DNA of 21,552 nucleotides from the IMG/VR virus record IMGVR_UViG_2718218127_000003; one strand, 5' to 3'. Source of the stretch: a virus (Duplodnaviria; Heunggongvirae; Uroviricota; Caudoviricetes). The notes beneath the pieces are model-generated. The model had not been told where the DNA came from. It ran no database searches and saw only the letters and a list, made by a program, of their open reading frames with translations. Numbering within the stretch: the first letter of the stretch is position 1; the number at the start of each line of letters is the position of its first letter. The translations under genes and the position numbers were made by a program. Below are positions 3,058 through 8,925 of this stretch, in pieces.

Positions 3058-3297
3058 TATGCAAGCCTCACAATATAGTTAAATGCGATGTTTTTGACGG
3101 TGTTTTCCGCGTTACCAGCAGCGTTAACGGTGATGGTATGTCCATGTGAACCAATCGCAACGGAGTGCGTATGAGCACCAATACCGACAGTATGTGCGTG
3201 TGCACCTGCGCTTGCAGCAGTACCCGATACAGAGTGCGTATGAGCGCCTGCAGAAGAAGTGTTAACACTGTATTTAGAATAATCAGGTGATCCACTT
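3057..3297 (-). pseudogene. Side tail fiber (stf) gene, 3'-terminal remnant of about 80 codons
   Basis: My own translation of an alternative minus-strand frame gives ...[79 protein letters not shown], the (G)AHTHSV-repeat C-terminus of lambdoid side tail fibers. There is no start codon; it is fused upstream to the nu1 fragment. Confidence 0.7.
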
Positions 3298-3625
3298 CCA
3301 CCACTTCAGCGGAGTCTCTGGCATTCTTCAGTTCCTGTGCGTCGGCCTGCGCACGCGTAAGTCGATGGCGTTCGTACTCAATAGTCCCTGGCTGGAGATC
3401 TGCCTCGCTGGCCTGGCGCAGTTCTTCAACCTCCCGGCGCAGCTTTTCGTTCTCAATTTCAGCATCCCTTTCGGCATACCATTTTATAACGGCGGCAGAG
3501 TCATAAAGCACCTCATTACCCTTGCCACCGCCTCGCAGAACGGGCATTCCCTGTTCCTGCCAGTTCTGAATGGTACGGATACTCGCACCGAAAATGTCAG
3601 CCAGCTGCTTTTTGTTGACTTCCAT
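3296..3625 (-). pseudogene. nu1: Terminase small subunit Nu1, N-terminal 110 codons only
   Basis: [110 protein letters not shown] matches lambda Nu1 as I recall it. After codon 110 the frame runs into out-of-frame stf sequence (the listed 185-aa ORF is a chimera). Confidence 0.85.
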
Positions 3626-3968: not shown

Positions 3969-4661
3969 ATGTCCAGAGAAGGAACGTTAGATTTATTGCA
4001 AGAAGTTGAAGAAACCGTTGAAATATTAAAAGATACGCAACAAATAAAACCAGTAAAGGTTAAATCAATACTTGAAAATTTAAGAAGCGCATTAGAATAC
4101 GTTGCGAATGATAGTTATGAAAAACATACCACTAACCAATCAACCCCTCGGCCAAAAATTTATTTCCCATACGGCGAGAAAAAATTTTTAGATGCTTTCT
4201 TTATTAAAAAATTAAACTGCCAGCAACCTGAATTATCTCCATTATATGCAGTTTTTGTTTCAATCCAAGACTATCAAACTGGTAATAACTGGCTTGGAAT
4301 GATGTGTAACCTCACGAACGAAGTAAAACATAGGAAACCAATCCCATTGAGTGAAGATAGTATTGTTCGAGGAATAGATGTTAATATCAATGGGTTTGGA
4401 TTAATTAAGACAGATGCTACATCAAAAATCATTTTCAGAGATAATTTCACCAATGGACAGAGAATTGAAGACTTCACCATTGAAAATGGTAAAGTTGAAA
4501 AATCAGGGAACGGAATCCCCATCAATATTAACATAACCGAAGAGAAAAAAATAAGATTCCACGGTACAGATTATGAGGTCATTCCTTTTGTAGAGTTATG
4601 TCTAAAAGAAATAAGAGATTTTGTTAATGAAGCATATGAAATTTTAGATGCCATTGAATAA
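3969..4661 (+). CDS. Hypothetical protein, 230 aa, no recognisable domain; gene at the bor position between Rz and cos
   Basis: ATG at 3969 is preceded by GGAG with 7-nt spacing. The gene is AT-rich relative to its neighbours and lies on the strand opposite the late genes. The product is hydrophilic with no signal peptide. Confidence 0.7.
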   Translation: MSREGTLDLLQEVEETVEILKDTQQIKPVKVKSILENLRSALEYVANDSYEKHTTNQSTPRPKIYFPYGEKKFLDAFFIKKLNCQQPELSPLYAVFVSIQDYQTGNNWLGMMCNLTNEVKHRKPIPLSEDSIVRGIDVNINGFGLIKTDATSKIIFRDNFTNGQRIEDFTIENGKVEKSGNGIPININITEEKKIRFHGTDYEVIPFVELCLKEIRDFVNEAYEILDAIE

Positions 4662-4756: not shown

Positions 4757-5260
4757 TCAATTGTAATTTGATGTCCTCACCGACTCATAAACGCGCTCAC
4801 ACGTCATTCCAGCCCGGTAGCTTTCGTCAGATCGCTCAGCATAATATCGAGCTTCTTCTGTAAGGCGGCCGAGCATGTCGGCGAGCACTGCGGCGTCGGC
4901 TCCGGCTGTTTTGCTTCTGACGGCAGCGGCAAGATCTGCGGTGTGCTTTGCGGCGTCCAGGCGGGCGGCAAGCTTTGTTGCTTCGGTGCGCAGCTGGTTA
5001 ACAGTGGCAGACAGGCCAGCAGCAGTGGCAGCAGATTTAGCTGCTTGTGCTTGTGCATCTTTTACAGCCTCATCACGGGCAATTATGCGCCCTTGTTCAA
5101 TCATGCGGGCTGCGGTCTGCGCGTTCGCTGTTTGCGATGATTCCGCGCTGTCACGTTCCGCCCACTTTTTTTCCCAACCGCGGCTACACCATATATTTCC
5201 AGCGATAAACGCACTGGTCACTAGTACCGCGGCAACAATAAGCTGGGAGCACAGGCTCAC
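4757..5260 (-). CDS. Rz-like i-spanin (inner-membrane spanin)
   Basis: N-terminal TM helix [23 protein letters not shown] followed by an Ala/Gln-rich coiled coil. The GTG start overlaps the endolysin stop (GTGA). Confidence 0.7.
4804..5058 (-). CDS. Rz1-like o-spanin lipoprotein, embedded in the +1 frame of Rz
   Basis: [23 protein letters not shown] has a lipobox (LTSC) and is followed by a Pro-rich segment. The gene lies entirely inside Rz, as in lambda Rz/Rz1. Confidence 0.65.
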
Positions 5261-5790
5261 TGGTCTATCCCCCAGCAGGTTAATGCACTCTCCTGGTCAC
5301 GACGAATAACCTGACCGTAACAATTATTTGAACGAATACGGCAATCACGTCCACCGTCCTTTATCCACCAGCGAATCGCCTCGCATGCGCCTTTACGATC
5401 ACCGGCATTAAGCCGCTTATAAAACGTCGACGGAAAACACTTACCAGGGCCAATGTTATAGGGACAGAATGACGCGATACCGGCTTTCTGTGGCTCGGTC
5501 AGTGGAACTTTTATATTGCGCTCCACCCATGCCAGCGCCTTATCCCGCTCAATGGCGTTAACCTGGGCGCATTTTTCCTTCGACAGTTTCATTCCCGGAA
5601 TAACAGGTTTACCGTCCACCATCGTTGCTCCCCGACAGATGGTCCATACGCCGGAGCCATCGCGGTATGCAGTGGTGTGATTCCCCTCTTTTTCATCAAG
5701 AAACTGATCGAGAATGTCAGGTGCAGGAGCACTGGCGGCAATCAGTGCCAGAACAGCAGCCGACAGGCTGTATCTGATTTTTACGTTCAT
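5257..5790 (-). CDS. Phage endolysin (GH24 lysozyme) with an N-terminal signal-anchor (SAR-type), RrrQ-like
   Basis: [56 protein letters not shown]... matches lambdoid lysozymes of the Qin/21 type. Confidence 0.85.
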
Positions 5791-5924
5791 GGATATTTAT
5801 CAGGATTTATCGGTTTCTGAACCCTGGATATGTTAAGCATTCAGCCCGTCAGTGGTAGGACACTGGCGCTCTGGTTAAGGATTATGGGGGATGCAGGCTG
5901 GGCTACCCCATCTGAGGATTTGAT

Positions 5925-6164
5925 ATGCAAAAAGAAGTTTTTATCAATATTACAGCTGACTGCTCATCTCCTGCATCAACAGCAAAAGAAATTGAAGCTC
6001 TTAAATATATGATTACAGTAATATTTACCGTATTGGACCAGAATGAAAAAAATGGAATCATTCATCAATTAAATGAACATGTAAATAATCCATATATCAA
6101 AAGCAATCTGGAAATGTTGCTACCAATGAAAGATATTGGAAAACCAACTGAAACAAAAGGCTAA
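5925..6164 (+). CDS. Small hypothetical protein (79 aa) inserted in the lysis cassette on the opposite strand
   Basis: ATG at 5925 is preceded by GAGGA with 6-nt spacing. The gene is AT-rich and has no recognisable family. Confidence 0.45.
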   Translation: MQKEVFINITADCSSPASTAKEIEALKYMITVIFTVLDQNEKNGIIHQLNEHVNNPYIKSNLEMLLPMKDIGKPTETKG

Positions 6165-6475
6165 CAACCCGTAATCGAGTTATCTGAACTGTTAATTTTT
6201 ATGGTATACCGCGCCTCTGAACAGGGGCGCGTTTCTGGCAACAGCTCGTCCCCTTCACATAACCCGGCAGCAACATCCAGGAAGACCTGTCTGATGCTCC
6301 TTCTGGCTGCTGCCTCATAAAACTCCAGCGCGGCACCTTCAACACGGTCCAGCGAGATGTCCAGGTCAAAAATTTCACCGTCAAAGCGTTTTTTGTCCCG
6401 TAACGCTAAAGTTACCGTAACTTTATTCTCAAAATTGCGGATCCCTTTCACAATCAGTTCATAGTTTTGAGTCAT
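6161..6475 (-). CDS. YdfR-like protein (DUF1327 family) of the Qin-type lysis cassette
   Basis: MTQNYELIVKGIRNFENKVTVTLALRDKKRFDGEIFDLDISLDRVEGAALEFYEAAARRS... ATG at 6473-6475 with GGGGAGAG upstream. It sits between holin and endolysin, as ydfR does between essQ and rrrQ. Confidence 0.7.
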   Translation of the reverse strand: MTQNYELIVKGIRNFENKVTVTLALRDKKRFDGEIFDLDISLDRVEGAALEFYEAAARRSIRQVFLDVAAGLCEGDELLPETRPCSEARYTIKINSSDNSITGC

Positions 6476-6479
6476 TGAA

Positions 6480-6695
6480 TTACTCTCCCCGTGCAGCCTT
6501 GCGCTTATCTTCTTTAATCTTGAAATAAAGGTTTGTCAGGTACGTCAGCAGGCCAAATACCAAGCTACCCAGCACACCTATTGCTGCCCACTGTGAGGGC
6601 GTGACTTTATCGAGCAGCTGTAAAAACCAGTAGCCAGCACTGCCTGCGGAGGTGCCGTAGGCAATGCCCGTTGTTAACTTATCCATGGATTTCAT
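6480..6695 (-). CDS. Class II holin, phage 21 S (pinholin)-like, with a dual-start motif
   Basis: [71 protein letters not shown], 71 aa, with Met1 and Met4 (antiholin/holin starts). Strong SD GGAGGTG. Confidence 0.85.
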
Positions 6696-6786
6696 AGCCT
6701 CACCTCCGCAAATAACGGATGGTGTACACGGTTCGGAACGAAGAGGAAAGGTATAGAAGTTACATTAGCGTAAGGCTTGAACATCT

Positions 6787-6821
6787 ATTCAAAAAGAAAA
6801 ACGCCAGCGATTATTCTGGCG
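6787..6821 (-). terminator. Intrinsic terminator downstream of the AraC-like gene and upstream of the holin
   Basis: On the minus strand: CGCCAG-aataatcg-CTGGCG followed by TTTTTCTTTTTG. Confidence 0.55.
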
Positions 6822-6888
6822 TAGCTGAAAGCATCATACAATTATCAAATACGAAAATTACAAAATCATTAAAACGCATCACGTTACA

Positions 6889-7614
6889 TCATGTCTTTTC
6901 TAAAAAAAATCTTGATGAATATTGATGGGGAGGAACACCAAAATATCTTCTGAAAACACTTACAAAATATGACGTGTTTTCATAACCGCATATCTCAGTA
7001 ACTTTTCCAACAGAATATAAATTGTAGCTTAATAACCTTTCCGCCATCACCATTCGCTCTTCAAGAATTAACTTACTAAATGATAAGCCTTCGTGCTTTA
7101 ATTTTCCTTTTAACAGACTTTCACTCAGATACAGTCTTGAAGATATATCACAAAGTCTCCATGCTGCAGATATATCCGTGTGAATAATAGCCTTAACTTT
7201 ACTTCCTAAACTATTAAGACATCCAAATAAAAAACTTTGCACTATTTTCTCTGAAGATAAGATAGCAAGACATGCAAGTGATATTTGATTTCTAACAAAA
7301 TCCACAGTTCTGCCATCACAATTCAAGCATGCAATCAAGTTCTTTAACAATGAAAAATCTTCACATTCCACCATCAAGTATGCCGGATAAAACCTTCTTA
7401 CAGAAAAAGGTGAGAGTGTGTTGCTTTTAAAGAAATCATTAACTGTTTTCTCTTCAACATCTACGATCATTGCATGATCTATATTTGATGAAAAAAAATC
7501 TTTTAAATTGTAATCAATGAGAACAGCACTTCCTTTTTTAAATAAAATATCTTCTTTACCAATTCGGACATCAAACGAGTTCAACACCAAAATGATAGAA
7601 CATATGTATGGCAT
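6889..7614 (-). CDS. AraC/XylS-family transcriptional regulator, AppY/EnvY-like (241 aa from the ATG); paralog of 228..971
   Basis: ...WRLCDISSRLYLSESLLKGKLKHEGLSFSKLILEERMVMAERLL...CGYENTSYFVSVFRRYFGVPPHQYS. ATG at 7612-7614 is preceded by AGGTGG. The gene and its 350-bp upstream region are AT-rich. Confidence 0.8.
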   Translation of the reverse strand: MPYICSIILVLNSFDVRIGKEDILFKKGSAVLIDYNLKDFFSSNIDHAMIVDVEEKTVNDFFKSNTLSPFSVRRFYPAYLMVECEDFSLLKNLIACLNCDGRTVDFVRNQISLACLAILSSEKIVQSFLFGCLNSLGSKVKAIIHTDISAAWRLCDISSRLYLSESLLKGKLKHEGLSFSKLILEERMVMAERLLSYNLYSVGKVTEICGYENTSYFVSVFRRYFGVPPHQYSSRFFLEKT

Positions 7615-7965
7615 ATTATCCACCTGATATCATTGGGGTTACACCAGGTAAGTATAGGTGGAAAATCAATATTCGCCAGTTCAACAATAAGGAAAATCTC
7701 ATTGCATCACAAGTATAAAATTATGTATTTAACTCACAAAGACAAATTATTAAACCAATCTGTTATATTATATATAGCTGCGTGGAATCATAATATTATA
7801 TATTTTGACTGGCATGTTTACCAACTTTAAGTTGCATCTCAATGGTTTCTTCAGCGTAAACAGAGTTTTTATACAAACTGACACTCTGGGTATCATAGTG
7901 TAGTTTTTACGATTGTAAATATCCTGCATGCAGGAACTCATCCTTTTGGATGATATCGCATACAA

Positions 7966-8925
7966 TTAATTTACCATCAGTCTTAGAGCCAGTTCGTCCG
8001 GATAGGGATCGAAGTAATTCTGTGTAAGCAAGTAATCATTAGGATACTCACCCAGATAATGCTTCAGCAGAGTCAACGGCGCAAGAAGAGGTAATGTGCC
8101 AGAACGATAGTTAAGTATAACCTCGCTCAACTCTTTACGCTGGCGTGTACTTAAGTAGTTACTAAAATACCCCTGTATATGCATCAGCACATTCGTGTGA
8201 TTTTTACGTGATGCAGGTTTTCTGAGAATCGCCATCAGCTTATCACGATACACCTCAAAGTATGATTCAAGGTCCGCCCACTCGTGTATTGCAGCCACAA
8301 ATGGTCCCATATCTTTATAGCCTGCCTGACTATGCGCCAACAACTGAAGCTTATAACGACTATGAAAAGCTAATAACTCTCTTCTTGATAATTTCTCCTT
8401 GTAAAGGTGATTGAGCTCATGCAAAGCAAAAACTCTTTCAACAAAATTCTCACGAAGCACTGGATCATGTAATCGCCCATCCTCTTCAACCGGTAGCCAG
8501 GAAAACTTTTCCATCAAAGTGCTCGTAAATAGTCCCACTCCATCTTTACGACCTCGATTACCATTTTCATCATAGACACGCACGCGCTCCATGCCACAGC
8601 TGGGAGATTTAGCACAAACCACAAACCCCGATACATCCTTTAATTTGTCCATATAAGAACGACTAAACTCTGTCATTCTCTCTGTCACATCCTCATTCTG
8701 GTCGTGGCTGAAACACATCCGAATATTTCCTTGCGTCGAGCGCACAAGACGTAGAGCAGGACGCGGAACTGGCAGCCCTATAGCCATTTCCGGACATACT
8801 GGTCTGAATGTTACCCATTCCACTAATTTGTCCATTAAAAAGTCAGCTCTTTTGTGACCACCATCAAAACGAACAGCAGAACCGGCCAGACAACCGCTGA
8901 TTCCAATCACAGGTTTTTTTATCAT
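7966..8925 (-). CDS. YbgA-family protein: N-terminal DUF523 (TudS-like, Cys-rich) fused to C-terminal DUF1722
   Basis: MIKKPVIGISGCLAGSAVRFDGGHK...PVCPEM...VVCAKSPSCGME carries the conserved cysteines and SPSCG motif of the DUF523/thiouracil-desulfidase family, with a helical C-terminal half. Strong SD GGGGGAGG. Confidence 0.75.
   Translation of the reverse strand: MIKKPVIGISGCLAGSAVRFDGGHKRADFLMDKLVEWVTFRPVCPEMAIGLPVPRPALRLVRSTQGNIRMCFSHDQNEDVTERMTEFSRSYMDKLKDVSGFVVCAKSPSCGMERVRVYDENGNRGRKDGVGLFTSTLMEKFSWLPVEEDGRLHDPVLRENFVERVFALHELNHLYKEKLSRRELLAFHSRYKLQLLAHSQAGYKDMGPFVAAIHEWADLESYFEVYRDKLMAILRKPASRKNHTNVLMHIQGYFSNYLSTRQRKELSEVILNYRSGTLPLLAPLTLLKHYLGEYPNDYLLTQNYFDPYPDELALRLMVN

Follow-up and report, generated by a model that had tools for sequence, protein, structure and literature searches.

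The window studied here is a stretch of 21,552 nucleotides (nt) from the IMG/VR virus record IMGVR_UViG_2718218127_000003 (Caudoviricetes), and the analysis was focused on an open reading frame (ORF) of 79 amino acids (aa) located at positions 5925-6164. The ORF is read from the plus strand within a lambdoid lysis cluster of an Escherichia coli prophage, in which the late genes are all on the minus strand. Based on all the comparisons, it was concluded, with a probability of roughly 55%, that a "reverse moron" carries the ORF as its cargo, the reverse moron being a self-contained transcription unit that faces backwards within the late operon (lysis genes) of a defective lambdoid prophage. The reverse small gene is not a one-off; the reverse-moron layout and a covarying RNA leader in front of the gene had been overlooked in the preliminary description of this DNA. 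The 79-aa ORF alone would be one more uncharacterised accessory gene of a prophage. The wider leader pattern is more useful, as the leader tags at least 18 unrelated cargo families, among the matches listed, that lie backwards in late operons, including those of the well-studied phages HK97, HK022 and ES18.

We proposed that the unit would have a promoter of its own, either weak or dependent on an activator, and would be transcribed without relying on the Q-driven late transcription and, hence, probably in lysogens. The transcript would start at or next to the sequence UCAGCC and would end at a hairpin at 6210-6231. The folded leader would hide the 5' end of the messenger RNA (mRNA) and frame the ribosome-binding site, thus stabilising the mRNA and/or setting its translation. 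The product, a small cytoplasmic protein of three helices, would bind a partner protein in a phage-phage or phage-host conflict, acting in exclusion, defence or counter-defence, and such a role would explain the hypervariability of the cargo. During lytic growth, the late transcript would be fully complementary to the mRNA of the unit and would silence it.

The 79-aa ORF is a gene under purifying selection

The features of the ORF were as follows.

5925..6164, plus strand: 79-aa ORF between the endolysin start and the ydfR stop, with the translation as first quoted
5914-5918, plus strand: GAGGA, the Shine-Dalgarno sequence, separated by 6 nt from the ATG at 5925
6046-6052, plus strand: run of seven adenines (A7); the loss of one A gives 48-aa truncated variants in some strains (alignment P0006-P0008)

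The preliminary description had reported an extra small gene on the opposite strand between the genes of an endolysin and a YdfR-like protein, with a near-ideal ribosome-binding site. Both observations were confirmed, as the ORF of 79 codons and the GAGGA-N6-ATG arrangement are present in the sequence. A Shine-Dalgarno sequence, AAGGA or GAGGA, was found at the equivalent site in all relatives. The TAA codon of the ORF overlaps the ydfR stop, therefore the two genes converge.

The conservation of the ORF was then examined in related copies. In the copy found at loci L015 and L016, 35 of the 240 bases are changed (15% DNA divergence), with no stop codon or indel in the frame of the ORF, while the other two frames are full of stops. 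The ratio of non-synonymous to synonymous substitutions (dN/dS) against L015 was 0.26. The ORF is thus a real gene under purifying selection. More distant relatives were sought by an exhaustive profile search of 1.8 billion representative proteins, which returned proteins of 73 aa and 74 aa with 48% and 44% identity, respectively, and a 50-aa fragment with 44% identity. The residues D12, C13, S18, E22, I23, L26, K27, F34, Q39, K42, I46, Q48 and L49 were common to the relatives. The genes encoding the 44-48% relatives were likewise located in prophages; they are read from the strand that does not carry the late genes and are convergent with a late-strand gene. No relative was found when one genome of each species was scanned, which leaves the close family essentially within E. 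coli. In E. coli chromosomes, where the 601-bp query covering 5700-6300 was matched at 100% identity (97% in phage Perceval), the product is recorded as WP_032264896.1.

It was considered very improbable that the ORF is a decaying, non-functional remnant of a defective prophage. Such decay would agree with the degraded state of the prophage, in which the Nu1-like gene seems to be out of frame and an identical strain carries insertion sequence (IS) elements, and with the 48-aa frameshift variants of the A7 run, which occur on ~200 contigs. However, intact 79-aa forms were counted on at least 1190 contigs and thus prevail by ~6 to 1, the dN/dS value is low, the gene is carried by the plaque-forming phage Perceval, and both the distant homologues and the leader are conserved. 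The truncated copies may reflect either simple decay or slippage-prone variation.

Protein family and predicted fold

The 79-aa protein was assigned to phrog_21218, a family of unknown function, with an E-value of 9e-57, followed by phrog_6806 at 0.014, and no match was obtained in Pfam or PADLOC. The earlier statement that the product belongs to no nameable family therefore held, since phrog_21218 and the RefSeq label "hypothetical protein" (PGAP/RefSeq) were the only assignments. Profile matches to the Protein Data Bank (the DC-SIGNR neck and protein A) were rejected as repeat-summed artefacts.

A hidden Markov model (HMM) was built from 17 cargos similar to gp23 of phage HK022, with the window-type sequences excluded. 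The model matched the window ORF with 46.1 bits (E 4.7e-14 among the 245 ORFs of the window), the next best ORF scoring 4.6 bits, and matched HK022 gp23 itself with 84.8 bits. HK97 gp23 and ES18 gp25 gave no match to the model. HK022 gp23 in turn matched phrog_6806, and phrog_21218 at 7e-4, and 23 sequences of the superfamily could be aligned without gaps, HK022 gp23 being ~20% identical to the window ORF. Because a model made without the window-type sequences matched it, the window ORF was placed in an Srb-like superfamily (PHROGs 21218, 6806, 7249 and 16466). As delimited by these profiles, the superfamily is one of fast-evolving small acidic proteins that includes HK022 gp23 ("Srb").

The protein has a mass of 8.9 kDa and an isoelectric point of 5.6, and no transmembrane segment or signal peptide was evident by inspection of the sequence, without a formal prediction. 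AlphaFold2, supplied with an alignment including the 44-48% relatives, predicted a three-helix bundle with a confidence score (pLDDT) of 86, in which helices 16-35, 39-50 and 56-68 follow an extended N-terminus.

The structured leader

The region upstream of the ORF contains the following elements.

5840-5928, plus strand: conserved structured leader (5' untranslated region) of ~90 nt; covariance model score 42.1 bits, E 5e-11
5841-5846, plus strand: 5' box UCAGCC, complementary to the hairpin-2 loop GGCUGG (5896-5901)
5847-5868, plus strand: hairpin 1, CGUCAGUG / GUAGGA / CACUGGCG; dG -12.7, z -3.5
5884-5911, plus strand: hairpin 2, AUGGGG...CCCCAU, which ends 2 nt before the Shine-Dalgarno sequence and was aligned to hairpin 2 of the model by cmsearch

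The leader was first seen when the upstream regions of the distant homologues were compared, as a nearly identical hairpin was present despite the protein identity of 44-48%. Viral contigs were scanned for the pattern of hairpin 1 and then for that of hairpin 2, and more than 120 loci, which is a lower bound, were found to carry a module of ~110 nt before a different, usually small, ORF.

The base pairing was assessed in an alignment of 47 sequences. In hairpin 1, changes on both sides were observed in seven of eight pairs, and 97% of the cells were paired. In slid controls, 30-49% of the cells were paired, as against 96%. For the whole proposed structure, none of 500 shuffles reached the observed values on four of five measures, and one of 500 did so on the fifth. 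Pair 3 of hairpin 1 occurs as U.G in 18, C-G in 17 and U-A in 10 sequences; such a series is tolerated on the plus strand only and favours the sense leader of the small ORFs as the folding RNA. The stem of hairpin 2 differs by lineage and was found as GGAGG/CCUCU, GGGG/CCCC or GCAGAG/CUCUGC. The complementarity of the 5' box and the loop of hairpin 2 amounts to six pairs in 65 of 72 leaders of the pattern-collected sample, and C-to-U changes in the box keep a U.G pairing. Among the leaders that lack hairpin 1, six of seven have both flanking bases altered, which results in eight box-loop pairs. The complementarity suggests a pseudoknot or a sequestration of the 5' end. The variant without hairpin 1 was recorded at L085, L089, L096, L107, L131 and L185, where the 5' box reads AUCAGCCA and the complementarity is extended from six to eight pairs.

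For a detection independent of the window, a covariance model (R1) was built from 42 leaders, with the window-type sequences left out. The segment 5840-5928 was the only significant match in the window. Scores of 93, 76, 59.6, 49.8, 45.6, 44.2 and 22.8 bits were recorded for HK022, ES18, L020, L017, HK97, Perceval and L015, respectively. By blastn, the leader was detected in 218 of 5426 E. coli genomes, and no feature was annotated under it in any listed E. coli match (RefSeq records). Searches of Rfam 15 gave no relevant match at E <= 1 with window positions 5000-7000, nor any relevant match with the HK022, HK97, ES18 and L053 loci. The anti-small RNAs (anti-sRNAs) at PR' (Tree et al. 2014) were considered and rejected, as they are a different element. 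Nothing relevant to the leader, "reverse moron", HK022 "srb" or HK97 gp23 was found in the searched literature; the founding moron paper (Juhala et al. 2000) lay outside that scope and may mention a shared upstream sequence. Hence, the covarying leader common to many reverse cargos appears to be undescribed.

As a tentative extension, it is possible that the leader represents a new class of cis-acting RNA, in which the terminal UCAGCC would pair with the loop of hairpin 2 and which would mark an exchangeable "reverse cassette" system in the lambdoid prophages of Enterobacteriaceae. One portable promoter-leader module would then drive dozens of unrelated, fast-evolving small proteins from otherwise silent late operons, as weapons or shields expressed in lysogeny for conflict. 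If the leader controls mRNA stability or translation, it would be a new regulatory RNA, and if the cargos are conflict genes, it would provide a cheap search handle for mining them. The pattern would also help to account for the exchange of accessory genes between conserved flanks in the mosaic lambdoid genomes, and it gives testable handles on HK022 gp23 and HK97 gp23.

Cargos and slots

Behind the leader, at least 76 distinct cargo sequences were counted in 122 occurrences among the matches listed, and in the 106 distinct occurrences they formed at least 18 unrelated BLASTP clusters. The Srb-like group had 42 members among the matches listed. The other cargos included DUF1883 proteins (1.6e-26), proteins of 169-211 aa without a family, and a zinc-ribbon family (CxxC...CxxC) that matched the Lar restriction-alleviation protein below the threshold (20.3 bits, with the cutoff at 28.6). 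The mean GC content of the cargos was 0.39.

The leader was found in several slots, namely in the lysis region, at the tape measure gene and gene M, at genes I and J, and between the lysis and terminase genes, and wherever a locus was mapped, the module ran antisense to the late genes. A late-strand ORF ended between -54 and +156 nt from the stop codon of the cargo in 100 of the 106 occurrences, and the 3' ends overlapped in 55 of these 100. No one-to-one relation was seen between the 18 cargo clusters and the 20 partner clusters; the Srb-like cargos alone adjoin eight partner clusters, among them the essential tail gene M. Since one leader precedes unrelated cargos, always in antisense and in several slots, the cargos appear to have been exchanged between conserved flanks.

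The commonest convergent neighbour (51 of 106) was a late-strand family beginning with MTLEQRVE, in which the N-terminus is conserved and the C-terminus is variable. Examples were found at L052 and L053 (+264 to +640 relative to hairpin 1, minus strand) and at ~50 other loci.

Proposed start, end and timing of the transcript

The signals that could delimit the transcript were as follows.

5829-5834, plus strand: -10-like hexamer TATGTT of a putative promoter, 6 nt before UCAGCC; no convincing -35 element
6210-6236 (hairpin 6210-6231), plus strand: terminator-like hairpin of 9 bp with a GAAC loop and with UUUCU after it, located within the 3' part of ydfR; dG -17.9, z -3.6
6163-6184, minus strand: hairpin resembling a terminator, with a T-run, directly behind the ydfR stop, called by the consensus scan; weak fold, dG -9.6, z -1.7

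The position of the -10-like hexamer reads TAWGKT in 78 leaders, with the A being conserved in 100% and the final T in 85% of them, and phage 689R5, in which the slot is empty, lacks the hexamer. This consensus fits a -10 element with a transcription start at or next to UCAGCC. The hairpin at 6210-6231 is the probable end of the reverse transcript, and a clear intrinsic terminator occupies the corresponding position behind HK022 gp23.

Several observations weigh against the unit as proposed above. No full sigma-70 promoter was found in the window (plus strand, strict scan), in HK022 or in ES18, so that where transcription starts and when the gene is expressed are inferred. Behind the plus-strand hairpin, the U tract is short (UUUCU), and this hairpin was not called by the consensus terminator scan. 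Regarding the leader, the loci were gathered by hairpin patterns, and the conservation of the parts selected in this way is biased. The box-loop pairing is based on invariance and perhaps one lineage with extended pairing rather than on true covariation, and the folding energies of hairpin 2 and of the whole leader were no better than those of shuffled sequences.

In HK022 (L187, 2451-2468, minus strand) and ES18 (L189, 2471-2488, minus strand), a strong late-strand intrinsic terminator was observed just beyond the leader, unlike in the window, which has no strong terminator of this kind. The forward transcript of the small gene would, therefore, be antisense to the entire reverse gene in these two phages, and the arrangement could represent mutually exclusive convergent units.

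These data also bear on the view that the transcript, rather than the protein, matters. The unit would then provide an antisense RNA that damps leaky late genes (ydfR, endolysin) in lysogens or destroys the late mRNA of superinfecting relatives. A precedent exists in STnc6030 of the Salmonella prophage BTP1, a non-coding RNA of more than 700 nt that is expressed in lysogeny as an antisense RNA against late genes and mediates superinfection exclusion by base pairing (PMC7067206). Its very arrangement makes the unit antisense to the late operon, cargo and late-strand genes overlap at their 3' ends in the 55 occurrences given above, and the terminators of HK022 and ES18 would make a forward transcript complementary to the whole reverse gene. 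Nevertheless, we considered this explanation unlikely. Purifying selection acts on the ORF, a strong Shine-Dalgarno sequence is conserved, and protein homologues persist despite the diverged DNA. In the window, the transcript is directed away from the endolysin gene and, before reaching the hairpin, would share only ~70 nt with the 3' end of ydfR. STnc6030 itself contains no ORF longer than 60 aa (PMC7067206), whereas the window unit encodes a conserved protein with a short antisense overlap. With a conserved ORF, its dN/dS of 0.26 and distant protein homologues, the window unit does not match a non-coding cis-antisense RNA of the STnc6030 type.

It was judged slightly less likely still that the ORF is a gene of the lytic cycle, expressed from its own promoter early after infection or induction, e.g., as an anti-defence protein or a modulator of lysis timing. 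The cargo is small, acidic and helical, like many anti-defence proteins, and one cargo family gave the sub-threshold Lar match (20.3 bits against 28.6). The poor -35 element could mean dependence on an activator, and the cassette is carried by Perceval, HK97, HK022 and ES18, which form plaques. On the other hand, the analysis identified no site for a regulator, the gene would be opposed by convergent late transcription at late stages of infection, and the block has been kept in a defective prophage, which fits a benefit to the host.

The replaced block and the YdfR partner

The surrounding lysis genes and the block that carries the unit are listed below.

4757..5260, minus strand: Rz/Rz1, a member of the lysis cluster
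5257..5790, minus strand: endolysin (Pfam Phage_lysozyme, 1.7e-24), a late gene downstream of the cassette
6161..6475, minus strand: YdfR-like DUF1327 gene (Pfam, 5e-39), convergent with the 79-aa ORF; the swapped block encodes the C-terminal tail of YdfR
6480..6695, minus strand: holin of the P21 type (P21 holin, 2e-35)
~5804-6270, no strand assigned: block absent from K-12 Qin, which replaces ~105 bp of Qin and holds the leader, the ORF and an alternative ydfR 3' end

In the K-12 prophage Qin, the stop of ydfR overlaps the start of rrrQ with zero spacer. The alignment with Qin stops ~12 nt past the endolysin start and resumes inside ydfR near 6275. The same slot is empty in phage vB_EcoS-689R5, and by that comparison the block was narrower, ~5820-6211. 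The whole block was present in 96 of 3086 E. coli genomes with matching flanks. Because the C-terminal codons of ydfR have been swapped as well, the block is a cassette replacement and not a pure insertion. An insertion of 370 AT-rich base pairs had been suggested earlier. The slot is indeed empty in Qin, but ~105 bp together with the ydfR 3' end have been exchanged. The ORF is AT-rich, with a GC content of 0.29-0.32 against ~0.5 in the lysis genes, but the 135 bp on its 5' side, with the conserved leader, have ~50% GC. The earlier remark that late transcription would run antisense through the ORF was borne out, as the reverse gene occupies a slot that is empty in Qin and is flanked by late genes on the minus strand.

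The tail RYTIKINxSDNSI of YdfR is kept in L015. In the YdfR/DUF1327 proteins, the N-terminal ~90 aa are constant and the C-termini differ (PHROGs 2735, 2091, 406, 34145 and 1085). This was noted at 6161-6270 (minus strand) in the window, at 3175-3726 in L003 and at 1935-2279 in L005. The variable C-terminus is encoded in the swapped block together with the reverse ORF and often overlaps it.

YdfR binds RNA and RNase E's catalytic domain (PMC13232886). It was supposed that the ORF and YdfR/DUF1327 might form an obligate module, in which the ORF would be an antagonist or a partner of YdfR. A DUF1327 gene is convergent with the reverse gene in the window, L015, ES18 (gp24/gp25) and L049, the C-terminal tail of YdfR moves together with the cassette, and the 48%-identical homologue in L017 has a distant YdfR-like protein (BLASTP, 1e-4) as its neighbour. 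However, physical linkage accounts for the shared tail, the homologue in L020 and L031-46 adjoins an unrelated 150-aa protein, and the Srb-like cargos occur with eight partner clusters, the commonest neighbour being the unrelated MTLEQRVE family. The module was thus regarded as improbable, and an obligate pairing with YdfR was not supported by the table of cargos and partners.

Other small reverse ORFs were found in the slot between the endolysin and ydfR genes, namely one of 86 aa in 2H10 (phrog_2572) and one of 90 aa in 783R2 and Chlobot (phrog_2411), each with a strong Shine-Dalgarno sequence. Neither of them matched the PADLOC defence profiles. Homology among the 79-, 86- and 90-aa ORFs could not be shown, as BLASTP gave no matches and the hhalign probabilities were below 1%, and they were treated as separate families. 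The 86-aa ORF of 2H10 gave a marginal score of 11.7 bits with the HK022-gp23-like HMM. Some records name members of the 90-aa family (L005, 1697-1969, plus strand) "ybl58", a 59%-identical relative occurs in Citrobacter, and protein P0087 is a version of this family that leaves the frame and then returns.

Comparison with known systems

Morons, as described by Juhala et al. in 2000, are reportedly extra DNA between otherwise adjacent genes, of deviant base composition, with their own promoter and factor-independent terminator, and expressed from a repressed prophage. To our knowledge, a structured leader common to unrelated cargos is not part of this definition. The block in the window is extra DNA between genes that are adjacent in relatives, and the 79-aa ORF has a base composition unlike that of its neighbours. 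A hairpin after the gene is a further common point, and a probable independence from the late operon would be another. The window differs in that the evidence for a promoter consists of the conserved -10-like box only.

The leader lies upstream of three genes annotated in GenBank, HK022 gp23, HK97 gp23 and ES18 gp25. HK022 gp23 ("srb protein; moron gene product", NP_037683.1) belongs to the same superfamily as the window ORF, has the leader, and is likewise reversed in the late operon and convergent with a small forward gene. It differs by its location between the tail genes I and J instead of the lysis cluster, by the identity of only ~20% and by its clear intrinsic terminator. HK97 gp23 ("reverse moron product") and ES18 gp25 ("possible moron") also follow the leader and lie backwards in the late operon, and ES18 gp25 is convergent with a DUF1327 gene (gp24), like the window ORF. 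Their proteins, however, are unrelated to the window ORF and they occupy tail-gene slots. No published function of HK022 gp23 or HK97 gp23 was found in the searched literature. The gene arrangement corresponds to that of the "reverse moron", for which annotations exist in HK97, HK022 and ES18, and the window ORF is a new, uncharacterised member of this known kind.

The bor gene of phage lambda is expressed in lysogens. Like the window ORF, it is an oppositely oriented accessory gene, it is independently expressed, as proposed for the window ORF, and it adjoins Rz, but Bor is an exported lipoprotein, whereas neither a signal peptide nor a transmembrane segment is evident in the window ORF. Both bor and the cassette are present in Perceval, and the covariance model gave one leader match in this phage (L002) and none upstream of bor.

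Other features of the window

A further AT-rich ORF of 230 aa (3969-4661, plus strand; GC ~0.32; phrog_13652, of unknown function) lies backwards just after Rz, in the slot held by bor in Perceval. The covariance model revealed no further leader copy anywhere in the window, e.g., ahead of this ORF. A gene for an AraC-family regulator (6889-7623, minus strand; HTH_18, 2e-12; phrog_1450) is also AT-rich (GC ~0.31) and sits between the holin gene and a YbgA-family gene at 7966-8925. It resembles a further accessory insertion, placed downstream of the late promoter region.

The ORF at 3068-3625 (minus strand) is presumably the small subunit of the terminase, similar to Nu1, as called from the lambda sequence. 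Its C-terminal half is seemingly out of frame, and the prophage therefore appears to be defective. Strain MB06022, identical over the 601-bp query, carries IS3 and IS1 to the left of Rz instead.

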